A DNA stretch of 64,000 bases, from NCBI GenBank assembly GCA_951406725.2, contig OX597817.1:162378001-162442000 (forward strand). The letters are read 5' to 3'. The first letter of the stretch is position 1; the number at the start of each line of letters is the position of its first letter. A program made the translations under genes and the position numbers. Positions 3,855-63,796 of the stretch are shown piece after piece. The stretch comes from Octopus vulgaris. Taxonomy: Eukaryota. The notes beneath the pieces were generated by a model. That model was given only the letters and a program-made list of their open reading frames with translations. It did not search any database and had not been told where the DNA came from.

Positions 3855-6800
3855 AATTGTTGTTGTTGTTGTTGTTGCGCTGAGGTTGCTGTTGTGGTGG
3901 TTAATGTGGTTGCTGTTGTTACAGTGGTTGTTGCTGTGGTAGTGGTTGTCGTTGCTGTGGTTGTTGTTGTTGATGTTGTGGTGGTGGTTGTTGTAGTGGT
4001 TATTGTTGTGGTATTGGTAGCGGTGTTGGTAGTAATGGTGGTGGTTGTGGTGATAATTGTTGTTGTTGTGGTGGTGGTGGTGGTTGTGATGACAGTTGTT
4101 GTTGTTGTAGTAGTGGTGATAGTAATTGTTGTTGTGGTGGTGGTAGTGGTGACAGTTGTTGTTGTTGTAGTAGTAGTGGTTGTAGTGGTGGTGGTGGTGG
4201 TGATAGTTATTGTTGTTGTGGTGGTGGTAGTGGTACCGGTAGTGACAGTGGTGGTGGTGGTTGTTGTGGTGATAGTTGTTGTTGTTGTTGTTGTGGTGGT
4301 GGTGGTGGTGGTGATAGTTATTGTTGTCGTGGTGGTGGTAGTGGCATGGTAGTTGTGGTGATAGTTGTTGTTGTTGTTATTGTGGTGGTGGTGGTTGTTG
4401 TAGTAGTGGTGATAGTTGTTATTGTGGTGACAGTTGTTGTTGTTGTAGTAGTGGTGATAGTAATTGTTGTTGTGGTGGTGTTGTTGTGGTTATTGTTATG
4501 TTGTTGTGGTGGTGGTTGTGGTGACAGTTGTTGTTGTAGTAATGGTGATAGTAATTGTTGTTGTGGTGGTGGTTGTGGTGATAGTTATTGTTGTTATGGT
4601 GGTGGTGGTGGTTGTGGTGACAGTTGTTGTTGTAGTAGTGGTGATAGTAATTGTTGTTGTGGTGATGGTTGTGGTGATAGTTATTGTTGTTGTTGTGGTG
4701 GTGGTGGTAGTGGTGGCAGTTGTTGTTGTTGTAGTAGTGGTGATAGTAATTGTTGTTGTGGTGGTGGTTGTGGTGATAGTTATTGTTGTTGTGGTGGTGG
4801 TTGTGGTGATAGTTATTGTTGTTGTGGTGGTGGTTGTGGTGATAGTTGTTGTTGTTGTGGTGGTGGTTGTGGTGATAGTAATTGTTGTTGTGGTGGTGGT
4901 TGTGGTGATAGTTATTGTTGTTGTGGTGGTGGTTGTGGTGATAGTTATTGTTGTTGTGGTGGTGGTTGTGGTGATAGTTATTGTTGTTGTGGTGGTGGTT
5001 GTGGTGATAGTTATTGTTGTTGTGGTGGTGGTTGTGGTGATAGTTGTTGTTGTTGTGGTGGTGGTTGTGGTGACAGTTGTTGTTTTAGTAGTGGTGATAG
5101 TAATTGTTGTTGTGGTGGTGGTTGTGGTGATAGTTATTGTTGTTGTGGTGGTGGTTGTGGTGACAGTTGTTGTTTTAGTAGTGGTGATAGTAATTGTTGT
5201 TGTGGTGGTGGTTGTGGTGATAGTTATTGTTTTAGTAGTGGTGATAGTAATTGTTGTTGTGGTGGTGGTTGTGGTGATAGTTATTGTTGTTGTGGTGGTG
5301 GTTGTGGTGACAGTTGATGTTTTAGTAGTGGTGATAGTAATTGTTGTTGTGGTGGTGGTTGTGGTGATAGTTATTGTTGTTGTGGTGGTGGTTGTGGTGA
5401 TAGTTGTTGTTGTTGTGGTGGTGGTTGTGGTGATAGTTGTTGTTGTTGTGGTGGTGGTTGTGGTGATAGTTATTGTTGTTGTGGTGGTGGTTGTGGTGAC
5501 AGTTGTTGTTTTAGTAGTGGTGATAGTAATTGTTGTTGTGGTGGTGGTTGTGGTGATAGTTATTGTTGTTGTGGTGGTGGTTGTGGTGATAGTTGTTGTT
5601 GTTGTGGTGGTGGTTGTGGTGATAGTTGTTGTTGTTGTGGTGGTGGTTGTGGTGATAGTTGTTGTTGTTGTGGTGGTGGTTGTGGTGACAGTTGTTGTTT
5701 TAGTAGTGGTGATAGTAATTGTTGTTGTGGTGGTGGTTGTGGTGATAGTTATTGTTTTAGTAGTGGTGATAGTAATTGTTGTTGTGGTGGTGGTTGTGGT
5801 GATAGTTATTGTTGTTGTGGTGGTGGTTGTGGTGACAGTTGTTGTTTTAGTAGTGGTGATAGTAATTGTTGTTGTGGTGGTGGTTGGTGGTGATAGTTAT
5901 TGTTGTTGTGGTGGTGGTTGTGGTGACAGTTGTTGTTGTGGTGGTGGTTGTGGTGATAGTTGTTGTTGTTGTGGTGGTGGTGGTGGTGGTGATAGTTGTT
6001 GTTGTTGTGGTGGTGGTTGTGGTGATAGTTGTTGTTGTTGTGGTGATAGTTGTTGTTGTTGTTGTGGTGGTGGTTGTGGTGATAGTTGTTGTTGTTGTGG
6101 TGGTGGTTGTGGTGATAGGTGATAGTTGTTGTTGTTGTAGTGGTGGTGATAGTAATTGTTGTTGTGGTGGTGGTTGTGGTGATAGTTATTGTTGTTGTGG
6201 TGGTGGTTGTGGTGATAGTTGTTGTTGTTGTGGTGTAGTTGTGGTGATAGTAATTGTTGTTGTGGTGGTGGTTGTGGTGATAGTTATTGTTGTTGGTGGT
6301 GGTGGTGGTTGTGGTGACAGTTGTTGTTGTAGTAGTGGTGATAGTAATTGTTGTTGTGGTGGTGGTTGTGGTGATAGTTATTGTTGTTGTGGTGGTGGTT
6401 GTGGTGGTAGTTGTTGTTGTTGTTGTAGTAGTGGTGATAGTAATTGTTGTTGTGGTGGTGGTTGTGGTGATAGTTATTGTTGTTGTGGTGGTGGTTGTGG
6501 TGACAGTTGTTGTTTTAGTAGTGGTGATAGTAATTGTTGTTGTGGTGGTGGTTGTGGTGATAGTTATTGTTGTTGTGGTGGTGGTTGTGGTGATAGTTGT
6601 TGTTGTTGGTGGTTGTGGTGATAGTTGTTGTTGTTGTGGTGGTGGTGGTGGTTGTGGTGACAGTTGTTGTTGTTGTTGTGGTGGTGATAGTAATTGTTAT
6701 TGTGGTGGTGGTGGTGGTGGTTGTTGTGATGATAGTTGTTGTGGTTGCCGTGGTAGTAGTGGTGGTGGTGATGGTAGTTGTGGTAATGGCTGTCGTGGTT

Positions 6801-6980
6801 ATTATTATTGCAGTGGTGGTTGTTGTTGTTGTAGTGGTAGTAGCTCTTTTGGTGGTTGTTGTGGTCGATGTTGCTGCAGTGGTTGATATTACTGTGGTGG
6901 TGGTTGTTTTTGTTGTATTGGTAGTGGTTGTAGTTGTTGTTGTGATGGTTGTTGAGGTGGTGGTTATCTGTTGTGGTTAG
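3855..6980. repeat. About 3.1-kb trinucleotide-derived compound minisatellite (33-bp core GGTGATAGTTATTGTTGTTGTGGTGGTGGTTGT, 57-bp variant)
   Basis: Tandem units directly visible; homogeneous centre, degenerate edges. Confidence 0.95.
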
Positions 6981-20879: not shown

Positions 20880-21290
20880 TGTCTGTCCTTGTTTGTCCCC
20901 TCTGTGTTTAGCCCCTTGTGGGTAATAAAGAAATAGGTATTTCGTCTGCCGTTACGTTCTGAGTTCAAATTCCGCCGAGGTCGATTTTGCCTTTCATCCT
21001 TTCGGGTTCGATTAAATAAGTACCAGTTACGCACTGGAGTCGATATAATCGACTTAATCCGTTTGTCTGTCCTTGTTTGTCCTCTCTGTGTTTAGCCCCT
21101 TGTGGGTAGTAAAGAAATAGGTATTTCTTCTACCATTACATTTTGAGTTCGAATTCCGCCGAGGTCGACTTTGCTTTTCATCCTTTCGGAGTCAGTAAAA
21201 TTAGTACCGGTTATTTACTGGGGATTGATGTAATCGACTTAATCCATTTCCCCCAAAATTTGAGGCCTTTTGCTTCCAGTAGAAAGGATT
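20880..21290 (+). mobile_element. 5'-truncated multimeric family-C SINE
   Basis: Tail, then a 184-bp unit, then a unit with the alternative tail, joined at AAAGAAATA|GGTATTTC. Confidence 0.8.
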
Positions 21291-33560: not shown

Positions 33561-33968
33561 TCATCATCATCATCATCATCATCATCGTTTAACGTCCATT
33601 TTCCATGCTAGCATGGGTTGGACGGTTCAACCGATGTCTGGGAAGCCAGGAGGCTGCACCAAGCTCCAGTCTGATTTGGCAATGTTTCTACAGCTTGATG
33701 CCCTTCCTAACACCAACTACTCCGTGAGTGTAGTGGATGCTTTTTACGTGCCACCAGCACAGGGGCCAGGGAAGGCTGGCAGCGGTCACGATCGGTTGGT
33801 GCTTTTTACGTGCCACCAGCACAGAAGCCAGTCAATGCGGCACTGGCATCGGCCATGTTCGGATGGTGCTTTTTACGTGCCACCGGCACAGGTGTCACAA
33901 CTACAATTTCCATTTGATATTTATTTTGATGTTGATGTACTTCACTCAATAGGTCTCCTCAAGTACAG
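33561..33968 (-). mobile_element. RTE-like LINE 3'-end repeat with (ATG)n tail and internal subrepeats of about 45-50 bp
   Basis: (CAT)n-CGTTTAACGTCC..TTTCCATGCTAGCATGGGTTGGACG and repeated GGTGCTTTTTACGTGCCACC. Copies at 26510-27120, 30710-31020, 39510-39970, 47817-48150, 57146-57430, 57800-58425, 59575-59930, 61885-62335, 63098-63610. Confidence 0.75.
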
Positions 33969-34628: not shown

Positions 34629-36139
34629 TATAATTATTTTAGTATATGTATGTGTGTATGTGTGTATGTATGTATGAGAGAGAGAGGAGAGAAAGATAGT
34701 GAAGATGTGACAAAGTTAGAGCAGGGACCATATGCCCAAGTTACAGGGTTGTGTATAAGTGAACCTGGGTTTGGAGAAGATGAATGGGTGGGTGAGTTCA
34801 CAAGCTTTTGAAAGGAGTAGGGGCTAGACGTAGAAGAATATCAACTACTGAGGTTGCAAAAACAAAAGGACTTGCCCTCAACAGTATGCATCATACAGGG
34901 ACAGGTGTCTGCAATAGTATTTCCACACTTGTACACACTCCCCACATCAATAAGGTACCACTCTAGGGCAGTGGATTCATGGAATTATTAGCAGTACCTT
35001 CCAAAGTGGGGTAAAATATACAAAGCCCAGTATATTCCTCACCTCATCCACTTGGACCCCAAACCTATACACTTCCATAAAAGCATTCCATCACCTCTGC
35101 TACACTCCTCATTATTAGACTTCCAGGACAAGGTGCCTTGTAGAATCTGACGTGGTTCTTTGCATTCTGATTGGAAATTCTACTTAAGGTTTCAAATGTC
35201 GTTGATGACCAGAGTTAACCACCAAACCATGGGGCCATTATTTGATGTTGAAAAGCTGATGAGAGTTGCGATGAATGATGGAGGTTTGTGACTGTCTGCT
35301 ACAGCAGGTGTACAAAGATGATGGAAATTTTAGACACAGAAACAGAAAAGAGCAATAGATTCACCAAAAAATATGAAACATGCATCTATTGCTTATTGAA
35401 TGACTGCATTACTGACTCTACAACACAGCAACTACCATTCTCTCTTCTCATGTTAGGCATTATAAATTGTTTCTCTATTTTAATAATAGTATATTTTATC
35501 CATCATGTGCAATAGAAGTAGTAGTTTAAAACAGCAACTGGTATATCATACTTAAAACAGATACATCAATGAAAGCCTAATTATAGTCAAACAGTGTTAT
35601 CACAGTAAATTAGGCTTTTAATGATATATCTGCTTTAAGTATCATATACAGATTGCTATTTTATTTTATGTTCACAATGTCTCTATCAATAGGTCAGTTG
35701 CTCTTTCCTGTCTCAAATAAGTTTTGATAATACCACGTTAATATAATTATAGTTCTTATTCGTTTTCTCCATGCTAGCATATGTTGAATGAGGCTTATTG
35801 GGGTAGTATTCTACAGCTGGGTGTCCTTCCTTACAACAGCCTTATCTTGTTTTTCAAGTTAGGCACTTTATTTCACAACGCCATATGAACTGCTGAGCTG
35901 ATTTTTGTTGATGTGGGACATAAACACTGTTACACTAAGAAACTGTAACAATTTCATAATAAGGAAAGAAAAAAAAATACATAAGTGAATTCTATATAAC
36001 CTATTCCTCATAATTCCCTATTTTAAATTCAAATTTCTAATCCTTGTTGTGAAGGGATGGTTATCTCCCTTGTATTAACTGCCATCACTAGAGGGAGCTA
36101 CAATTTAACCATATTTTTTTTTAATCAAATGGATTAAAT

Positions 36140-36850
36140 AATAATAGAAATATTAAAATTACTAAGTCTCTCTAAAAGAGAACAGCGGCAGCGTTCCCGG
36201 AAAATAATAGTTATCGCCATACTAATATGGCATTCTTATAAAAATAAGAATAAAGCTGTCCGCTTATTAGCTCCATGAGGCCATCGCCTTAAGTTAGCTA
36301 TTTGATACACAAACTGTATCCATATAACCTTCGAACAAGGGAGGTCAGTCGCTCCACACTACTTGACCGGCAGCTACAGACACGTTTCGGGGTATTGCCC
36401 CTTTTCAATGCAGCGTAGCCAGCCAGTAGGTGTCGCTTCCGACAATCTCTGTTCGATGGTTTTATTTACCTAGTTTCCGTGGAATACATCCACTTGTTTT
36501 CAATAATAGAAATATTAAAATTACTAAGTCTCTCTAAAAGAGAACAGCGGCAGCGTTCCGGAAAATAATAGTTATCGCCATACTAATATGGCATTCTTAT
36601 AAAAATAAGAATAAAGCTGTCCGCTTATTAGCTCCATGAGGCCATCGCCTTAAGTTAGCTATTTGATACACAAACTTTATCCGGTCAAGTAGTGTGGAGC
36701 GACTGACCTCCCTTGTTCGAAGGTTATATGGATACAGTTTGTGTATCAAATAGCTAACTTAAGGCGATGGCCTCATGGAGCTAATAAGCGGACAGCTTTA
36801 TTCTTATTTTTATAAGAATGCCATATTAGTATGGCGATAACTATTATTTT
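36140..36850 (-). mobile_element. Retrozyme-like / non-autonomous Penelope-like element: 362-bp unit x1.5 plus 170-bp inverted copy
   Basis: 36140-36320 is repeated at 36502-36682; 36681-36850 is the reverse complement of 36201-36370; TSD TGGATTAAATAAT at 36130 and 36850; no ORF. Confidence 0.85.
36358..36430 (-). ncRNA. Type I hammerhead ribozyme, U3:A8 core variant; predicted cleavage after GUC (between 36379 and 36378)
   Basis: Minus strand GCUGCA-UUGAAAA-GGGG-caaua-CCCC-GAA-AC-gu-GU-C-UGUAGC; stem I extends via GGCUGGC/GCCGGUC and CUACU/AGUAG. Confidence 0.75.
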
Positions 36851-37319
36851 GGATTAAATAATGATATAATGATATAATTATTTCTAACATTGGCCCAGTG
36901 TTACACATTTATAGGAGAGATCCAAGTATTTAACTGATATAAGAAAGATAAAAAGGAAAAATTCACTCTGATAGAATTTAAACTTAATGGAATAAAATTC
37001 ATATATTTGTAGTGAAAGGCTATATTCAACAGAATCAAGTCCCAGTATATAACGGTACATATTTTATGAAGCCTAGCAGAATAAAACACAAAGTTGATCC
37101 TAATATATATATATATAATTGCTCGAAATACGAAGTAGAAAAGCAGCCAACAACTGATGAAGGGTCGTTTTTTTTTATGTTGCTTGTCTTGTTTTCCATT
37201 ATTTTCTTTCTTTATTTGCAAAAAAAAGTTTATAAAAAAGTTTATGTTTTCATAGTTCATATTCTATGTTGTTTTCACATTTCATGTTGTTTATGTTCTG
37301 TAGTGTTCTGTGCCCATAT

Positions 37320-39069: not shown

Positions 39070-41613
39070 CTGTAACAAAAATGCATATTCAAGTTTACTA
39101 ACAGAAAAAGACAACAACAACAATAACAATGGTGGTGGTGGCAGCGGCAATGGCGATGATGATGATGATGATGAAATTATTGTATACAGTGCTCAGGTGC
39201 ACCACAACTTGTCAAAAGTGCATATAAAGTATATGCAGTAATGTACAAATGTCTGGAAAGCGAACAGTGTATGAATCAGATATATGCTTGCGTGTGTATG
39301 GAGGGGAGGCAGAGTGTTGGGCATGTCTGTAAGAGGGATTAGTATTGTTCTGGCAAGACTAATTTGGTCCCGCCTTGTTGCTAACAGATGTTGTAGGTCT
39401 GTGACATTTGGACACTTAGGTTATTCAACGTAACAACTATCTTCTTGAGAGGTATTGATTATCAATAAAGTTAGATTTTTGGTAAATTATTTTAACAACT
39501 CTGACACGATGACTGCCATCTGTGCTAGTGGAGCGCTAAGAGCACCATCCGAGCGTGATCGTTGCCAACTGGCTTCTGTGCCAGTGGCATGTAAAAAGCA
39601 CCATTCGAGCGTGATCACTACCAGGGTTGCCTTACTGGCACTTGTGCCAGTGGCACGTGAAAAAACATTCGAGCGAGGTCGTTGCCAGTGCCGCTGGACT
39701 GGCTCCTGTGCAGGTGGCATGTAAAAAACACCATTTGAGCGTAGCTGTTGCCAGTACCGCCTGACTGGCCCTTGTTCCGGTGGCACGTAAAAACACCCAC
39801 TACACTCTCGGACTGGTTGGCGTCAGGAAGGGCATCCAGCTGTAGAAACGCTGCCAGATCAAGATTGGAGTCTGGTGCAGCCATCTGGTTCGCCAGTCCT
39901 CAGTCAAATCGTCCAACCCATGCCAGCATGGAAAGCGGACGTTAAACGATGATGATGATGATGATGATGATAGTCAATCTGCAGCTATAGTAGAAGACAC
40001 TAGACAGTGTCCACACACTGGAAACAAACCCTAAATCAAACGGTTCTGAAGTCAGCTACTTAATTATCTGGTTATGTCTATATCATCATATTTTAATCAC
40101 TATTTAGCACCCATACTCCATGCTGGCATGGATTTAACAGTTAAATGGATCCCACAGGTCAGAAGATTGTGTCAAGTACCAATGTCTGTTGTGGTATAGC
40201 TTACATAAACAGAGTGTGTGTAGGTATGGTTAAGAAGCTGGCTTTGCAATCAAGTAGTTTGGGGTTTAGTCCGTCCCATTGTTCATCTTTGCGCAAGTGT
40301 CTTCATTATAATGATATCCCGTATGTATCTATTCGTAGAACCTATTTACGGCAAGGTGAATTGAGCAATTTCAGAAATTTTCGTTCAAACACAAGTGGAA
40401 ACAACTCCTGTATACAAACTATTTCCAAGAGGAAATAACTCTTCATCTTCAACTTGACTATTTTTGCAGGGTATCCCGACTGAGAGGATTCAAATAAATG
40501 AAGGGATGGGGCTATGTTAAAGAGCAGTCATTCCATAGGGGATATATAATGTATTGCCCGAATGTGGAATTTAGTGCTCAAAATTTGAAATATAGTAGTG
40601 ATATATGGAGTTGTGTCTGAACATTTTATCAACACTGTGAGAATATTTTATCAAATTAATAGATTCAGGCGTGGCTCTCTCTTTACTCTTGTTTCAGTCA
40701 TTTAACTGTGGCCATGCTGGAGCATCGCTTTTAGTCGAACAAATCGATCCCAGGACTTATTCTTTGTAAGCCTAGTACTTATTCTATTGGTCTCTTTTCT
40801 TGAACCGCTAAGTTATGGGGACGAAAATACACCGGCATCAATTGTCAAGTGATGTTGGGGAGACAAACACAGACACACAAACATATATATATATACATAT
40901 ATACGACGAGCTTCTTTCAGTTTCCGCCTACCAAATCCACTCACAAGGCTTTGGTCGACCCGAGGCTATAGTAGAAGACACTTGCCCAATATGCCATGCA
41001 GTGGGACTGAACCCGGAACCATGTGGTTGGTAAGCAAGCTACTTACCACACAGCCACTCCTGTGCCTATGTTTTTTTACATGGGGAATATTATTTTTCTG
41101 GGAAACAGAAGAGGGCTGATGACAGGAAAGGCATCCAGTTGTGCAGTAAAAGTTTGCTTCCCAACCACAAGGTCTTGGGTTCAGTCCCACTGCATGGTAC
41201 CTTGGACAAGTGTCTTCTATTATAGCCCTGGGCCAACCAAAGCTTTGTAAATGGATTTGGTAGACAGAAACTGAAAGAAGTTACTGTCTCTTTGCTTTGA
41301 CTTCATATGCTAGTTGTAAACGAGAATCACTGTTATGTAAGCGACGTCCTTCATTTCTATTCTTCTGTGAAAACATATCTGATCATGGGGAATATTATTT
41401 TTCTGGGAAGCAGACGAGGGCTGGCGACAGGAAAGGCATCCAGTTGTGAAAAATCCACCTCAACAAATTCTGTCCAATCCATGCAAGCATGGAAAAGTGG
41501 ATGATAAAACAATGATTAATACTGGTCAGGTTTACAACCAAAATGGAAGGAATCAGAGATTTAGAAAGGAGAAAAACAAAAAAATCTAATGTAGAAAAAC
41601 AAAGTATATTTAC

Positions 41614-47266: not shown

Positions 47267-47683
47267 TAAGGCGGCGAGCTGGCAGAAACGTTAGCACGCC
47301 AGGCAAAATGCTAAGCGGTATTTCGTCTGCCGCTATGTTCTGAGTTCAAATTCTGTCGAGGTCGACTTTGCCTTTCATCCTTTCGGGGTCGATTAAATAA
47401 GTACCAGTTATGCACTGGGGTCGATATAATTGACTTAATCCGTTTGTCTGTCCTTGTTTGTCCCCTCTGTGTGTAGCCCCTTGTGGGCAGCAAAGAAATA
47501 GGTATTTCGTCTGCCGCTATGTTCTGAGTTCAAATTCGCCGAGGTTGACTTTGCCTTTCATCCTTTCGGGGTTGATTAAATAAGTACCAGTTACGCACTG
47601 GGGTCGATATAATCGGCTTAATCCGTTTGTCTGTCCTTGTTTGTCCCCTCTGTGTTTAGCCCCTTGTGGGTAGTAAAGAAATA
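47267..47683 (+). mobile_element. Dimeric family-C SINE
   Basis: Head plus two units of about 184 bp; TSD AGATGACTT on both sides. Confidence 0.88.
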
Positions 47684-48950: not shown

Positions 48951-50471
48951 TAGGCAGCAAGATGGCAGAATCATTAGCACACTGGGTGAAATGCTTAGCG
49001 GTATTTCATCTGCCATTACGTTCTGAGTTCAAATTCTGCCGAGGTTGACTTTGCCTTTCATCCTTTCAGGGTCGATAAATTAAGTACCAGTTACGCATTG
49101 GGGTCGATCTAATCGACTTAATCCGTTTGTCTGTCCTTGTTTGTCCCCTCTGTGTTTAGCCCCTTGTGGGTAATAAAGAAATAGGTATTTCATCTGCCAT
49201 TACGTTCTGAGTTCAAATTCCGCCGAGGTTGACTTTGCCTTTCATCCTTTCAGGGTCGATAAATTAAGTACCAGTTACGCACTGGGGTCGATGTAATCGA
49301 CTTAATACCTATGTCTGTCCTTGTTTGTCCCCTCTGTGTTTAGCCCCTTGTGGGTAATAAAGAAATAGGTATTTCATCTGCCATTACGTTCTGAGTTCAA
49401 ATTCCGCCGAGGTTGACTTTGCCTTTCATCCTTTCAGGGTCGATAAATTAAGTACCAGTTACGCATTGGGGTCGATGTAATCGACTTAATCCGTTTGTCT
49501 GTCCTTGTTTGTCCCCTCTGTGTTTAGCCCCTTGTGGGTAATAAAGAAATAGGTATTTCATCTGCCATTACGTTCTGAGTTCAAATTCCGCCGAGGTTGA
49601 CTTTGCCTTTCATCCTTTCAGGGTCGATAAATTAAGTACCAGTTACGCACTGGGGTCGATGTAATCGACTTAATACCTATGTCTGTCCTTGTTTGTCCCC
49701 TCTGTGTTTAGCCCCTTGTGGGTAATAAAGAAATAGGTATTTCATCTGCCATTACGTTCTGAGTTCAAATTCCGCCGAGGTTGACTTTGCCTTTCATCCT
49801 TTCAGGGTCGATAAATTAAGTACCAGTTACGCACTGGGGTCGATGTAATCGACTTAATACCTATGTCTGTCCTTGTTTGTCCCCTCTGTGTTTAGCCCCT
49901 TGTGGGTAATAAAGAAATAGGTATTTCATCTGCCGTTACGTTCTGAGTTCAAATTCCGCCGAGGTTGACTTTGCCTTTCATCCTTTCAGGGTCGATAAAT
50001 TAAGTACCAGTTACGCACTGGGGTCGATGTAATCAACTTAATACCTATGTCTGTCCTTGTTTGTCCCCTCTGTGTTTAGCCCCTTGTGGGTAATAAAGAA
50101 ATAGGTATTTCATCTGCCGTTACGTTCTGAGTTCAAATTCCGCCGAGGTTGACTTTGCCTTTCATCCTTTCAGGGTCGATAAATTAAGTACCAGTTACGC
50201 ACTGGGGTCGATGTAATCAACTTAATACCTATGTCTGTCCTTGTTTGTCCCCTCTGTGTTTAGCCCCTTGTGGGTAATAAAGAAATAGGTATTTCATCTG
50301 CCATTACGTTCTGAGTTCAAATTCCGCCGAGGTTGACTTTGCCTTTCATCCTTTCAGGGTCGATAAATTAAGTACCAGTTACGCATTGGGGTCGATGTAA
50401 TCGACTTAATCCGTTTGTCTGTCCTTGTTTGTCCCCTCTGTGTTTAGCCCCTTGTGGGTAGTAAAGAAATA
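48951..50471 (+). repeat. Family-C SINE expanded into 8 tandem 184-bp units
   Basis: Units start at 49000, 49184, 49368, 49552, 49736, 49920, 50104, 50288; single head; 19-bp TSD GGTA(A/G)GGTGAAATTCAAGT at 48932 and 50472. Confidence 0.95.
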
Positions 50472-52144
50472 GGTAGGGTGAAATTCAAGTGAGAATTTTT
50501 CTCCATGGCAAACTGCAGTAAAAATGGCCTTTTTACAGGTCAAATATCTCCCAAATATATTTGAACTAATCTGAAAGCGTGTTCAAACAATCCTTCACAT
50601 GCAAACCAAGTACAATCTCTATAATAATCTGCTTGTTTGTTTACCTATTACACATTAGAGAGGTGGAGGTGGAGTGAGTGAGAGGTGGAGTTAGAGTGAA
50701 AGAAAGAGAGAGGGAGGAATGAAGAAAGAAGAGAGGAAGAGACAGAGAAAGGATATTAATATTAATACACTTAGGCCAAATGGTCACATGGTCAGCTGAA
50801 GGTAGAGGCAAAGAACAAGAGAAAAAAGGGGAGAGAGGAGTATTAACAATGTGCAGTGGGGTGGGAAAGGAATACTTATTATGTGGTAAAAAGTTAGCTG
50901 AAGGGAAAAGTAGATAGAGGGAGATGGACAGGGAAGGTAGTTATACACAGAGAGAGGGAGAGAGAGAATGTGGGGAGAGACAGAGAGAAAGAGAGAGAAA
51001 CAGATGGTGGTGGTGGTGGTGGTGGTGGAGTGTTCATACTGGAAAGTATTTTTTGTTACTGAACTAATTTTTTACAGCAACCATCATCTATGCATAAGTG
51101 CAATTATTTTATTGTCTGCTCGCTTAAAAAAATTGATATTTGTTTATAAAGGTTAATTTAGTCTAAATTCTGGATTCACAAGAAATATGGTTGCAAGCTG
51201 CCCAAGAAAGGATGCACAGATACAGAGCATGGATCAGAGAGGAACAGTGAGAAGATATAATAAAAAGAGGGAAAAAAACAAAACTGACGGAAACATGAGG
51301 AAATGAATATAACCAAACGTCAAGAATATTTTTAAAAAAAGCTAAATTATGAATGCTATAAAAAATGTAAATCATTCTTTCTTTGCATAAGTGCAATTAT
51401 TTGTCATCTGATCACTTAAAAAATTGATATTTGTTTATAGAAAGTCATCAGGTCATCAGTGCCTAATAAATAGACTTGCTAAATAAACATTAGCACAACC
51501 TTTCTTTCTTTCACACAACTGCAATGTTCTTGAACCTTCTTAAACTACGATATTGCAACATTGCAAGAATGGACATTAAATCCTATAATCACATCAGACT
51601 CGAGTTCTCAGACTATGAGGTAAATCTGAAAAGGTTGTTAGTCCCCTTTCACTCAACAGCAGCACAAATAATAGAAGAAATACCCCCCAAAAAGAAAAAG
51701 TTAGGCATGAACACACAGATAAAAAAAACAGAACCATCTATGTATGGCTTTAGAAGCTGACTTTGCAACCATGTGGTTTTGGGTTCAGTTCCAAAGAGTG
51801 ACACTTTGAGCAAGTGTTTTCTCTTATTTCCTTTGGCTGACTGATGTCTTGTGAGTGAATCTGGAAGATGGAAACTGTGAGGAAGCCTGTTATGTGTGTC
51901 TTTGTGTTGTTTGTTCTCATGTCTCCATGGCAATTAGTGTTGGTTTAATTACGTTCCAATAACTTAGCAGTTTCGCAAAAGAGACTCATAGGATAAGTAG
52001 CAAACTTAAAACTTTTAACTACTAGGGGGCGATCTATTCAACTAAACCGTTCAAAGTGGTGCCCCAGCATGGCTACAGTCCAATAACTAAAACTAACAAA
52101 AGATAAAAAGATATGCTTTGAGCTGAGAGGGGTGTATAACTTAC

Positions 52145-57039: not shown

Positions 57040-59897
57040 CTAAAATAGACCACATAAAAATAAGAGGTGAGAATTGTTATTATAACATGCGTCTATGTGT
57101 TTTTAATATAGATCTGTATTAAAATCATGGCAAAACAGATAGTATCATCATCATCATCATCATCGTCGTTTAACGTCCGTTCTCCATGCTAGCATGGGTT
57201 GGACGGTTCGACCGGGGATCTGGGAAGCCAGAAGGCTGCACCAGGCTCCAGTCTTATCTGGCAGTGTTTCTACAGCTGGATGCCCTTCCTAACGCCAACC
57301 ACTCCGTGAGTGTAGTGGGTGCTTTTTACGTGCCACCTGCACAGGTGCCAGGCGAGGCTGGCAATGGCCACGGTCGGATTGGTGTATTTTATGTGCCACC
57401 GGCACAGAAGCCAGATGAGGCGGTGCTGGCATATTCACTCAAGCAAAAACTAGGTTGCTTTGTCTAGAACTTCACAAACTAAAATCAATTTTATGACTAA
57501 TATATAAAAATTGTGTGGAAGAGATTTCATTATTATAACAACCAGTTGCTATTATAAATGTCAAGTCATGCAAATACATATTGCAGGTGGATGTAACTTT
57601 CTTGAATAAATTTTGTTACTTTTCAAAGAAATGAAAACTATAGCAGAAATAGTTGTATGTTTGGTCTTCTGAGCTTGCAGACTGGTTACAAACATGTCTG
57701 AGAAATAAAAAGAGGCTACTGCGGTACAATGAAGTGTAAGAGTCGGGGAGAAGAGGGAGATGTGTTTAACAAAGATAATTGAGAAATAGTGATTAGGAAG
57801 GGGTGATTGAAAATATGCTGTGCTTGAGAAGACCCGGCAAGTCAAGTGAGACCATAACCTTGTGGCCTATATGCCAGGGGTGTAACCAGCCCACTTATGC
57901 CTACCTTTCCTTCATTGGACACTAAACTCTGCTTGCGAAGACCTGTTGAGGCAAGTGAAATCGAAACCAAATTCAATGACAGGCATCTGTGCTAGTGGAG
58001 CACTAACAGCTCCATCCAAGCGGGATCACTGCCAGAGCAGCTAACTGGCTTCCATGCCGGTGGCATGTAAAAAGCACCATTCGAGCGTGGTCGTTACCAG
58101 CGTCGCCTTATTGGCACGTGAAAAAACATGCAAGTGAGGTCATTGCCTGTGCCACTGGACCGGCTCCTGTGCAAGTGGTACATAAAAAAGAACACCATTT
58201 GAGCATCGCCATTGCCAGTACCACCTAACTGGCTCTCGTGCCAGTGGCATGTAAAAGCACCCACTACACTCTCGGAGTGGTTGGCGTTAAGAAGGGCATC
58301 CAGCTGTAGAAACTCTGCCAGATCAGATTGGAGCCTGGTGCAGCCATCTGGTTCGCCAGTCCTCAGTCAAATTGTCCAACCCATGCTAGCATGGAAAGCA
58401 GACGTTAAATGATGATGATGATGATTACTAATATTTTTGTTTAAATTCACTGCTTTTGTTTCAAATGATTTTGAAAATAACAAAGAATTTAATAAGAACC
58501 AGGGACAGTCTTAGACAAGTTGGTATCAAAGAGATTAAAAGAGAAAGCTGTGGAAAAGTAAGGAAGCATACAAAAAGAGTGGGTGAAAGTGTGTGAGCTA
58601 GTGGCTACGGTGTTGCACTCACTGTCATGAGATTGTGGTTTCAATTCCTGGACCAGGTAGTGCATTGTGTTCTTGAGCAAAACACTTCATTTCACATTGC
58701 TGCAGTCCACTCAGCTGTAAATGAATTCCAATAATAGCTGGGAAGTTAACCTTGAGATGGACCAGCATCCATTTCAGAGAGAGAGAAGTTGTAATCTCAG
58801 TCATATGCCATGAGAACTGGGTTAAACCCTACCCTTATGAGTTTTAGGGTCCATGAAAAAGTGGAGATAAAAAGGTCAAGAAAAGAGAAAAAAAAACAAA
58901 AAAAACAATTTAATGCTTTTTTATTTTGTCTGTTTGATATGATTTGAACTCATGATAGAAACAGATGATAGGCACAGGTGTGGCTGTGTAGTAACTAGCT
59001 TGCTTTCCAACCACATGGTTCAGGGTTCAATCCCACTGTGTGGAATCTTGGGCAAGTGTCTTCTACTATAGCCTTGGGCTGTCCAAGGCCTTTTGAGTAG
59101 ATTTGTTAGACAGAAACTGACTAAAGCCCTCTGTAAAGGTATGTATGTATGCACACAGACACACACACATATTGTTATATTTCGGGATGGTAATTTGGTG
59201 GGGGGTGTAAACACATTTTTTTATGGGGATGTAAACACTTGACAACTGGTGTTGGTGTGTTTACATCCCCATAACTTAGAGGTTAAGCAAAAGAGACTGA
59301 CAGAATAAGTACTAGGCTTAAAAAATAAGTCCTGGGGTTGATTTGTAAAGTGGTGCTCCAGCATGACCACAGATTGAAACAAGTAAAAGAATAAAAGAAG
59401 AATAAAGCCACTCCTTTGAAGATGAGGGGAAAGGCTACCTCAACTGAAATCAAACCCGAGTATTTGGCTGGTGTTTCATTTCATTGTTGGAATGATGGAC
59501 AGTAAGTGAACAAAGTTATTAAGGTAAAGTTGACCCTGGCAGGATCTGAACCCAGAGTATAAAAAGATATAACTTGCCAGCGCTGCCCCGACTGGCCTCG
59601 TGCCGGTGGCACGTAAAAAGCACCATCCGTTCGTGTCCGTTGCCAGCCTTGCCTGGCCCCCGTGCCGGTGGCACATAAAAAGCACCATCCGTTCGTGGCC
59701 GTTTGCCAGCTCTGTCTGGCACCTGTGCAGGTGGCACGTAAAAAGCACTCACTACACTCACGGAGTGGTTGGCGTTAGGAAGGGCATCCAGCCGTAGAAA
59801 CACTGCCAGATCTGACTGGGCCTGATGAAGCCTTCCAGCTTCACAGACCCCAGTTGAACCGTCCAACCCGTGCTAGCATGGAAAGCGGACGCTAAAC

Positions 59898-61347: not shown

Positions 61348-63796
61348 CTGAAAGGGAACAGAAAAAAGAATTAATAAAATAAAATGAAATGAAATAAATA
61401 AGAAATGTATCAAACAATAAAAGTAAAAAATATTTCGTTTTTGGATTTGGTTTGCAAGATTCTTTATATGATTTCGTGTGTTGAAGCATTATTCTGTTGT
61501 GTCTGGGGAGAGTCATTTTCTTTTTGTGCCTTATTATGTAACACACTCACCGGTAAAATTTCCACTTTTTTCTTATCGTTATTGTCCTAAAATTTTCGTT
61601 GCATCTTGCAACCTTTTCAATAGGTTTTCAATAGTTTCAACAAAACTCTTTGCACATACATACAGACACTGACAAACAAGTACATATTTTTAAGGCATAA
61701 AGCCATAAATCAAAGTACCCTAGTTGATTTAATGACCCCTGTGCTCAATTGGTACTTATTTTATCGATCCTGAAAGGCAAAGGCAAAGATGACCTCAATA
61801 GAATTTGAACTCAGAACATAAACATAGAGGAAGTGCCACTAAGCATTTTGTCTAGCATACAAACAATTCTGCTAACACACCACCATCATCATCATCATCA
61901 TCATCATCGTTCAACGTCCGCTTTCCATGCTAGCATGGGCTGGACGATTTGACTGAGGACTGGCGAACCAGATGGCTGCACTAGGCTTCAATCTTGATCT
62001 AGCAGAGTTTCTACAGCTGGATGCCCTTCCTAACGCCAACCATGCTGAGAGTGTAGTGGGTGCTTTTTACGTGCCACTGGCACGGGGCCAGTCAGGCGGT
62101 ACTGGCAATGACCTCACTCGAATCTTTTTACACATGCCACCAGCACAGGTGCCAGTAAGGCGATGCTGGTAACAATCACGCTCGAATGGTGTCTTTTACA
62201 TTCCACTGGCATGGAGGCCAGATAGCCGCTCTGGCAACGATCACGCTCGGATGGTGCTCTTAACACCCTACTAGCACAGGGCTCGAGTGCCAGTAAGGCA
62301 ACGCTGGTAATGATCACACTCGAATGGTGCCTTTTAATAATAACTAAGGCAGTAAGCTGGTAGAATTGTTAGCAGACCAGGCAAAATGTTTAGTGGCAGT
62401 TCATTCATCTTTACTTTCTGAGTTCAAATTCTGCTGAGGTCAAATTTGCCTTTCATCCTTCCAGGGTCAGTAAAATATGTACCAGTTGATGCAATTGACT
62501 TGTCCCACTCCAAAAGTTGGTGGCTGTTTGCCAAAATTTGAAACCAATATTAACAACTAGATTCTCATTTTGGCACAAGGCCAGCAATTTTGAGCAGTGG
62601 CGATTAGTGAATACCATCAACCCCAGTACATGACTGGTACTTTATTTGACCTCAGCAGCATTTGAAGTCAGAACATAATAAGCAGAACCAAACACTGCAA
62701 AGCACTCTTTCTGACACTTTAACGAGTCTACCAGCTAAATGGCTTATAATTGTTACCAATAATTCTTTCTTTTATACATGCAAACCCTGAAGTATTTGGG
62801 GGTGAGGGCTAGTTGATTACATCAACCCTAACACCTACTTGGTACTTATTTTATTGACCCCAAAAAATTGAAAGACAAAGTCAACCTGGGCAGAATTTGA
62901 GCTCAGAATGTAAAGACAGATGAAATATCATTAAGCATTTCATCTGGCATGCTAACGATTCTGCCAGCACATCCACCTTATAATTATTATCATTAATAAT
63001 GCTTTCTACATTGGTATAAGACCAGACAATTTTAGCTTGGTTGATTAATTCACAAATGTTCTCTCTTGGGTTTATAATCTCAAAAGCAAAAATACTATCA
63101 TCATCATCATCATCGTTTAATGTCCGCTTTCCATGCTAGTATGGGTTGGACAATTTGGCTGAGGGCTGGCGAACCAGATGGCTGCACCAGGCTCCAATCT
63201 TGATCTGGTAGAGTTTCTACAGCTAGATGCCCTTCCTAATGCCAACCACTCCGAGAGTGTAGTGGGTGCTTTTTATGTGCCAATCAGGCGGTACTGGCAA
63301 TGACCTCCCTCAAATCTTTTACACATGCCACTGGCACAGGTGCCAGTAAGGTGATGCTGGTAATGATAACGCTCGAATGGTGTCTTTTACGTGCCACTGA
63401 CACAGAGGCCAGATAGCCACTCTGGCAATGATTATGCTTGGATGGTACTCTTAACACCCTACTAGCACAGGGCTTGAGTGCCAGTAAGGCAACGCTGGTA
63501 ATGATCACACTTGAATGGTGCCTTTTATGTGCCACTGGCATGGAAGCCGGTTAGCCACTCTGTCAACGATCACACTCGTATGGTGCTCTTTGCACCCTGC
63601 TAGCACGGACCTTATATAGAATTAATTTATATTCTTTATAGAATATTACACACTTTTCCTTGTAGTGATATTGGAAGTCTGGCAACTAGGTTTGGAAGAG
63701 GTTGTAAAATGGGGGCCTAGAGACATGCAAGTTATTCTGCAGTCACCCATCTCTCAATGTTAAAAAAAAGAAACAATAAGAAGAAATAAAGCTTAC

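Follow-up and report, generated by a model that had tools for sequence, protein, structure and literature searches.

The closest described counterparts of the element reported here are the non-LTR retrozymes (lacking long terminal repeats, LTRs) of the mussel Mytilus galloprovincialis, for which RNA, including circles, was shown (Cervera and de la Pena, 2020, PMC7229834). They consist of 350-390-bp units, non-coding and arranged in tandem, with low GC content and one type I hammerhead ribozyme each; they occur in thousands of copies with long target site duplications (TSDs), give strongly self-paired RNA, and co-exist with Penelope-like elements (PLEs). Hammerheads with a U3-A8 core have been published for the Cercyon PLEs of Schistosoma mansoni, with about 1,300 hits (Cervera and de la Pena, 2014, PMC4209133). 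PLE insertions contain partial tandems, an inverted 5'-truncated arm, and a one-sided tail of 30-40 bp (Craig et al., 2021, PMC8557442), while two internal start sites for the reverse transcriptase (RT) were described in a PLE (Frangieh et al., 2024, PMC11167929) and a 34-bp repeat in Penelope (PMC2377424). Here, we describe a hammerhead-bearing, non-coding repeat at positions 36130-36862 of a 64,000-nucleotide stretch of the Octopus vulgaris genome (contig OX597817.1, positions 162,378,001 to 162,442,000; hereafter the window). Judged from its sequence, this is a recent insertion of a U3:A8-hammerhead repeat that is likely (probability of about 0.78) a non-LTR retrozyme that depends on proteins of a Neptune-type PLE for its mobility.

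A young family of tandem hammerhead units

The insertion consists of a full 362-nt unit, a tandem partial unit, and an inverted 170-nt arm, flanked by a 13-bp TSD (TGGATTAAATAAT) at 36130-36142 and 36850-36862 on the plus strand. Three nucleotides of the TSD are shared with the element on the left side (its last three, common with the element end) and one on the right. The TSD is visible because this copy is among the few family insertions located outside microsatellites. The full unit occupies 36140-36501 on the minus strand (unit position p = 36502 - coordinate) and is joined at 36502-36682, on the same strand, by a 5'-truncated partial unit (positions 181-362) without ribozyme; the two direct copies show a spacing of 361-362 and 98.9% identity by BLAST. 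Together they form a 543-nt arm terminating at the outer end of the full unit, the priming end E2 (positions 354-362, ...CTATTAT), which a tail of about 60 nt (36140-36200, minus strand) separates from the priming end E1. Beyond a 2-nt microhomology at the arm junction (36681-36682), the inverted arm (36681-36850, plus strand) carries positions 132-301, without the ribozyme core, and ends at E1; its 170 nt are 100% complementary to 36201-36370. The first-pass annotation had proposed the 362-bp unit, the partial copy, the 170-bp inverted copy, and the 13-bp TSD, all of which alignment confirms. That the inverted copy is an accessory 5' piece was ruled out, as the insertion is bounded on either side by a 3' end in ribozyme sense. 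None of the 13 open reading frames (ORFs) in the window matched Pfam, and the contigs of two deep sequencing runs end at 36074, before the insertion. A transcript across 36201-36850 would fold into a 170-bp hairpin without mismatches, on which adenosine-to-inosine editing or small-RNA silencing might act, and this layout is common to most insertions of the family.

The hammerhead motif lies on the minus strand at 36373-36414. Stem I is formed by GCUGCA (36414-36409) and UGUAGC (36378-36373), the core UUGAAAA (36408-36402) supplies U3-U4-G5-A6-A7-A8-A9, and stem II pairs GGGG with CCCC; GAA, the palindromic stem III (ACGUGU, 36385-36380), and C17 of the GUC site (36379) complete the motif, with cleavage predicted between 36379 and 36378. 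Stem I continues into a long predicted extension (36324-36474, minus strand), the distal pairs of which covary among subfamilies. The predicted 131-nt fold comprising stems I and II and the long extension has a z-score of -4.61 (equalled by 0 of 200 shuffles), and that of the whole unit one of -7.76 (0 of 100). In an Rfam search of the window sequence, no hammerhead family was hit, whether at E ≤ 1 or with the gathering score as cut-off; this miss is expected because the core is a variant, and it does not count as a defining failure. With its Watson-Crick 3:8 pair, GAAA, NUH site, and covarying stems I-III, the motif has the sequence features of a type I hammerhead. The U3:A8 pair is biochemically tolerated in hammerheads.

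Across the genome searched (2.8 Gb in 227 contigs), the exact core pattern occurs 1,596 times, and its reversed control not once. The 3:8 pair is U3:A8 in 1,587 of these motifs (by subtraction), U3:G8 in four, C3:A8 in five, and C3:G8 in none. Position 7 may be A, U, C, or G across the family; older subfamilies (80-87% identity) have the core UUGAUAA or UUGACAA, such that only this free position varies. In the young subfamily, 11 of 2,143 core letters are changed (0.51%), compared with 734 of 73,824 (0.99%), a weak difference that was considered as a sign of purifying selection but in which CpG effects are possible. Covariation was scored on 24 of 32 clustered representatives, the other eight being omitted for indels, truncated flanks, or damage, which biases the counts upward: 94.7% of 528 cells are paired, compared with 22-53% in slid controls, and double changes occur in 5 of 22 pairs. 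The central pair of stem III is GC in 10 representatives, AU in 13, and GU in one; corresponding counts are GC 11, GU 11, and AU 2 for one stem I pair and GC 10, AU 9, and GU 5 for one stem II pair. Both the number of paired cells and the covariation score exceed 500 of 500 shuffles. The type I hammerhead, its stems I and II, and its UUGAAAA core were thus read correctly in the first-pass annotation, and the conserved U3:A8 core and stem covariation that it expected are found in the family. Its stem III, AC-gu-GU, is indeed present as ACGUGU, but the family form is the palindrome ACGCGU, and the window's letter is rare.

In the young subfamily, the variant column of stem III holds C in 138 of 144 segments, which makes the ACGUGU of the window a rare private change; deep runs show the family letter at this site. 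The older subfamily has ACAUGU, in which the central pair is swapped from GC to AU. Because a 2-nt loop cannot close, stem III is best read as an intermolecular pairing, and the six-base palindrome makes it likely that the ribozyme acts in dimeric form, as in the dimer model for hammerheads with palindromic stem III (PMC4209133, PMC6765202). Predicted self-pairing amounts to -3.1 kcal/mol for ACGUGU versus -7.5 kcal/mol for ACGCGU. The window copy, with a single ribozyme and a weakened palindrome, is therefore likely unable to release a monomer and would be a dead end; at least two ribozymes on one strand are present in 42 of 113 sampled insertions, from which a monomer could be released. The U3-A8 core, palindromic stem III, and dimer model are shared with the minimal hammerheads of PLE pseudo-LTRs, including the U3-A8 variant of Cercyon, whereas the octopus motif has a 6-bp stem I, a 4-bp stem II, and a long extension, and resides in tandem non-coding units rather than, as mostly in those PLEs, singly (PMC4209133).

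A search with the unit gave 170 matches among the 40 of 950 candidates scored, the full-length ones being 94-100% identical. Exact E1 terminal motifs number 2,520 genome-wide, with none in the reversed control; by these counts, this is a young family of about 2,500 units. Arrays repeat with a period of 362 bp, contain no ORF between units, and reach 10.6 units, in line with the many multimeric, permuted copies anticipated from the window. Units diverge by 0.50% within an insertion versus 1.46% between insertions. When at least two units of one insertion have a variant in common, every covering unit carries it in 143 of 156 cases, and such variants can span both inverted arms (for example, 262G in four of four segments), which points to one monomer sequence being copied repeatedly, through a rolling circle or template jumping. 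One closed contig of 392 nt on the unit was obtained from two of four runs guessed to be RNA and from two of four of unassigned kind; a tandem repeat in low-level genomic DNA yields this contig as well, and no conclusion is drawn from it. Of 23 entries surveyed, 20 contain the unit, and none of these is on record as RNA. Non-LTR retrozymes are dispersed, non-coding tandem units of 150-450 bp with one hammerhead each, TSDs longer than 4 bp, and no LTR, primer binding site, or polypurine tract, and the 362-bp units show these traits (for the last two, no dedicated search was made). The genomic features are thus those of a non-LTR retrozyme (PMC7229834; bioRxiv 10.64898/2026.07.22.740005). The octopus units resemble the mussel retrozymes in all of the properties listed above but differ in their U3:A8 core, and the targeting of (TA)n, two priming ends, and inverted arms of the octopus family are not met in the accessible account of the mussel elements (PMC7229834). 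RNA and circles are described for the Mytilus elements only, the octopus family being known from genomic sequence (PMC7229834).

Insertion ends and candidate Penelope-like drivers

Insertion ends were compared in 113 insertions, assembled from best hits, first-listed C1 pattern hits, and hand-picked arrays, with a few fragments and duplicates included. Contact with (TA)n is seen in 97 of them, and TSD-like 12-bp matches occur at two further non-microsatellite loci (L152 and L167). The inverted layout is present in 78, and the outer ends of these are ribozyme-sense 3' ends that fall at one of two fixed sites separated by about 60 nt: E1 (positions 290-303) and E2, both of which terminate in CTATTAT. 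Both ends belong to the E1/E2 classes in 66 of these 78, the remaining 12 having an end elsewhere. Among the 66, E1 is paired with E2 in 65 and E2 with E2 in one, and E1 is never paired with itself. Arm junctions in the 78 show overlaps of 1-6 nt (46), gaps (19), blunt joins (6), or longer overlaps (7). The main peak of 5' truncation falls at positions 159-168, within the 3' strand of the long stem. In L1 twin priming, the arms do not overlap in content, whereas those of the retrozyme do.

Two 3' ends separated by a tail, an inverted arm, and a microsatellite target like that of the autonomous partners discussed below are what would be expected of a non-autonomous PLE. The two-end layout agrees with the PLE tail, with the pair of RT start sites, and with Penelope's 34-bp repeat (PMC8557442, PMC11167929, PMC2377424), and the tail is likewise one-sided, both strands are primed, and the target is AT-rich (PMC8557442, PMC11167929). 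Unlike the 30-40-bp tail of PLEs, that of the octopus family measures about 60 nt (PMC8557442). Moreover, the one-of-each pairing is near-strict in octopus (65/66 in the retrozyme; 9/9 and 3/4 in two PLEs), whereas the available in vitro account reports no strand difference in start sites, and the octopus start sites also differ from that system in having short homology to the target (PMC11167929).

Two candidate drivers, both young autonomous families, emerged from the PLE candidates scored (150 of 6,136 for GIY-YIG and 131 of 14,080 for RT). The 781-aa protein of PLE-781 contains RVT_1 and GIY-YIG domains by Pfam, with CGRPNCGIC ahead of the nuclease, and its ORF diverges by 0.13-1.45% among eight copies. 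On the strength of its domain motifs and target, namely an RT, an upstream CX2-5CxxC linker, a C-terminal GIY-YIG, and (TA)n, PLE-781 is assigned to the Neptune type; the linker is defined as in PMC8557442, where Nematis shares it with Neptune. Its hammerhead is minimal, with the core UUGAUAA, an ACAUGU palindrome, and a weak stem I, and 607 exact ribozyme motifs were counted. Insertions have two ends 34 nt apart, an outer end of CCTATTAT, and the E1+E2 combination in three of four inverted cases. PLE-775 (775 aa) was scored in at least 131 copies with 99-100% protein identity. Its hammerhead-like motif (L264:4334-5090) has an AGUACU palindrome and, by visual inspection, the core CCGAAGA, with C at position 4; its ends lie about 40 nt apart, and all nine inverted insertions combine E1 with E2.

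No autonomous partner with a homologous terminus was found among 55 GIY-YIG loci, 43 further hammerhead loci, and 16 PLE-775 loci, and the unit is absent from the 55 GIY-YIG loci save for one copy nested in a TA tract. The five PLE protein matches near the 113 insertions are unrelated neighbours or targets; PLE fragments adjoining L070 and L189 were considered as chimeras and rejected as older targets or neighbours. PLE-781 is nevertheless the best candidate driver, with slightly better than even odds, because it shares the U3:A8 core, the palindrome, and the CTATTAT end with the unit. The autonomous PLE that the first-pass annotation had suggested looking for is thus matched in target, in the two-end rule, and, with PLE-781, in the U3:A8 core and CTATTAT, but not in any wider homology. 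Conversely, the finding that it had named as fatal, a unit that is simply the pseudo-LTR of a PLE, does not apply to any PLE sampled.

Several observations accompany these candidates. The 3' region of PLE-781 downstream of the ORF (L036-L044) contains repeated CCAAT-like and TGACGTC motifs and a TATA-like box and, judging by these motifs, is likely a promoter; the retrozyme unit lacks such an array. A heterodimer between the ribozymes of subfamily A and PLE-781 is unlikely, given a duplex of -0.8 kcal/mol versus -7.5 and -4.6 kcal/mol for the homodimers. Relaxed hammerhead motifs number 8,873 genome-wide versus 1,136 in the control, and at least two further repeat families have canonical CUGANGA cores with palindromic stem III (L196-L198, L203, L209, L211, L218, L225, and L234).

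A LINE at one site of the unit, and other repeats in the window

Long interspersed nuclear elements (LINEs) of the Tx1 clade are known to target other transposons (PMC4494074, PMC8869645), with Tx1 inserting into the piggyBac element Tx1D, Tx1-Mar into Mariner-N4, and Keno into U2 genes (Kojima, 2015, PMC4494074). Two octopus arrays were found to be interrupted at unit position 78 by the same foreign sequence, a 5.35-kb LINE (L300:239-5608 and L301:191-5545), and a stack of at least six tandem copies is present on C2 at about 73.04-73.07 Mb. ORF1 encodes a zf-CCHC zinc knuckle and ORF2 (1,140 aa) Exo_endo_phos, RVT_1, and zf-RVT domains according to Pfam; the closest solved relative of ORF2 is human L1 ORF2p (E 1.6e-66). 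The zinc-knuckle ORF1, the apurinic endonuclease (APE)-RT-zinc finger ORF2, the likeness to L1, and the sequence-specific target place the element as L1/Tx1-like, an assignment made from domains and target.

When the ends of the LINE were located with patterns from its interior, blind to the flanks, all 16 full 5' ends followed position 78 (13 in the unit and three in LINE tandems), and all 19 3' ends preceded position 62 (16 continuing into the ribozyme and three into the next LINE). Two further 3' ends agree, bringing the count at position 62 to 21 of 21. The LINE is thus inserted in the orientation of the unit, with a 17-bp TSD (positions 62-78), 62 nt upstream of the predicted cut; in the window copy, this site (36424-36440, minus strand) is empty. 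About 20 copies were counted, 97-100% identical, older diverged copies lying outside the sample. Units on either side of the LINE share subtype or private variants in 10 of 10 two-ended loci, and 5'-truncated LINEs have their own junctions at this target site (L316, L323, and L326), indicating that LINEs entered arrays of three subtypes independently of one another, after those arrays had formed. The LINE carries its own AATAAA and likely exploits the repeat as a safe multi-copy target. It resembles Tx1-clade LINEs in its APE-RT, zinc-knuckle ORF1, fixed site within a repeat, tandems, and long TSD, and differs from them in that its target is a ribozyme-bearing retrozyme (PMC4494074).

The 3' end of the LINE resembles the target sequence that it replaces. 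At L321, an inverted E2+E1 insertion, one arm passes from the unit into 697 bp of LINE and stops at the arm junction. This locus may be a PLE copy of a chimeric LINE-retrozyme RNA; a LINE insertion with a deletion is the simpler reading, given the target deletions at L322 and L326.

The window also contains repeats of other kinds. Tandem arrays of a 183-184-bp unit, which we take to be like a short interspersed nuclear element, occur at 49000-50475, 47317-47683, and 20880-21249, the largest with eight copies at 98%. Related 62-67-bp tandem repeats with a GCCAGTGGCACGTAAAA-like motif are found at 33738-33891, 39568-39793, 59585-59748, and 63340-63606. A 3-kb strand-skewed (TTG/GTG)n array at 3857-6954 shows higher-order periods of 24, 33, and 90 bp; its 447-aa frame has no Pfam match.

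Proposed cycle, alternatives, and significance

In the cycle that we infer, arrays of at least two units would be transcribed, and two adjacent hammerheads would pair by their palindromic stem III, cut, and free a 362-nt monomer to be ligated into a circle. An RT/GIY-YIG dimer of a PLE would nick each strand of an AT-rich site, in most cases (TA)n, with 12-13 bp between the nicks, whereupon one target strand would be primed at E1 of the RNA and its partner at E2. From there, each RT would circle the template over a length of 0.2 to 10 units, and the two complementary DNAs (cDNAs) would then join by short microhomology, giving the head-to-head layout. Copy number, target preference, the two ends with their pairing, junction microhomology, the uniformity of units within an insertion, and covariation are read directly from sequence, whereas transcription, cleavage, circularisation, and the identity of the driver belong to the model. 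Young multimeric copies, the conserved core, covariation, and PLEs with the same target and end rule all support the interpretation first put forward for the window, that of a recent PLE-mobilised retrozyme.

A number of points weigh against this interpretation. The count of double-change pairs is matched by 30 of 500 shuffles, and the covariation traces to a few subfamily-level events. The 113 loci are a non-random sample, and truncations near the predicted cut (positions 124-127) number 7 of 185, one among several equal minor peaks. Alignment of the unit with the terminal region of either PLE scores 22-25, compared with shuffle means of 24-25.5, and the tail of about 60 nt in the retrozyme compares with 34 nt in PLE-781 and about 40 nt in PLE-775. 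Furthermore, a lizard PLE with a dead hammerhead inserted equally well in vitro, and none of the reads terminated at its cut site (PMC11167929).

The strongest alternative is that the repeat is a non-autonomous PLE copied from linear, uncleaved multimeric transcripts, its hammerhead being kept for trimming or ribonucleoprotein folding and no circle being formed. PLE insertion in vitro did not depend on hammerhead cleavage (PMC11167929), cDNAs traverse the cut site many times within arrays, and there is no clear 5'-end peak at that site. The sharing of variants in 143 of 156 cases, also across arms, requires a monomer bottleneck with multimerisation at insertion and so speaks against this model; arrays of up to 10.6 units and the circles formed by the 350-390 bp mussel retrozymes (PMC7229834) likewise argue against it, and we consider it unlikely. 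Much less probable still is that the unit is merely the pseudo-LTR of an unsampled autonomous PLE, with the insertions as its truncated copies. The scored candidates are a small part of all GIY-YIG and RT matches, and of 57 retrozyme families in Xenopus, 24 had a match to known transposable elements, mostly PLE termini (bioRxiv 10.64898/2026.07.22.740005). Homology between the unit and a PLE pseudo-LTR is nonetheless lacking among the PLEs sampled; up to 10 consecutive units follow one another at 362 bp with no ORF between them, the 55 GIY-YIG loci lack the unit bar the nested copy, and the five protein matches beside the 113 insertions are unrelated.

That the L1/Tx1-like LINE rather than a PLE mobilises the repeat, or that the two move as a composite, is very improbable. 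The LINE is young, always linked to the unit, and reaches the arm junction at L321, but it has about 20 copies compared with about 2,500 units, and the ends, (TA)n target, and E1/E2 rule of the repeat match PLEs; the variants shared across the LINE by LINE-free flanking units at all 10 loci and the separate junctions of truncated LINEs largely refute it. A dispersed satellite with a chance or dead motif is the least probable alternative: each of the three stems shows compensatory changes, the 3:8 pair is invariant, and TSDs and fixed ends are present.

A more ambitious, three-tier reading would join all components: an active Neptune-type PLE, a circular-RNA retrozyme of its U3:A8 lineage with strictly asymmetric two-site priming, and a LINE, inserted just upstream of the hammerhead, whose transcript is excised and end-processed by the flanking ribozymes. 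These would serve the LINE as the HDV-like (hepatitis delta virus-like) ribozyme serves R2, except that they would be borrowed from the target. As a whole, we regard this combination as tentative, with perhaps one chance in a few of being correct.

The retrozyme class itself is not new, and U3-A8 has already been published for PLE hammerheads (PMC4209133); none of the individual parts constitutes a new class. The suggestion in the first-pass annotation that the element is undescribed in this lineage holds insofar as no literature report of a cephalopod retrozyme was found, nor one of a strict end rule or a retrozyme-targeting LINE, in a search that lay outside subscription journals, Repbase, and supplements, which may describe these families; it does not extend to the U3-A8 core. 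What was not expected is that a young L1/Tx1-like LINE occupies one exact site of a retrozyme. This LINE adds a ribozyme-bearing retrozyme to the known targets of sequence-specific LINEs and provides a new endonuclease specificity with a 17-bp TSD. The family also illustrates that whole families escape Rfam and retrozyme surveys based on CUGANGA. How PLEs come to insert in tandem and inverted form is still debated as a mechanism (PMC8557442), and for its study in vitro the octopus family offers a template of 362 nt, a pair of intact PLE proteins of the same age, and a sharp rule of one arm per priming site. On this reading, the mobility of retrozymes would be linked to the PLE machinery by mechanism, beyond co-occurrence.

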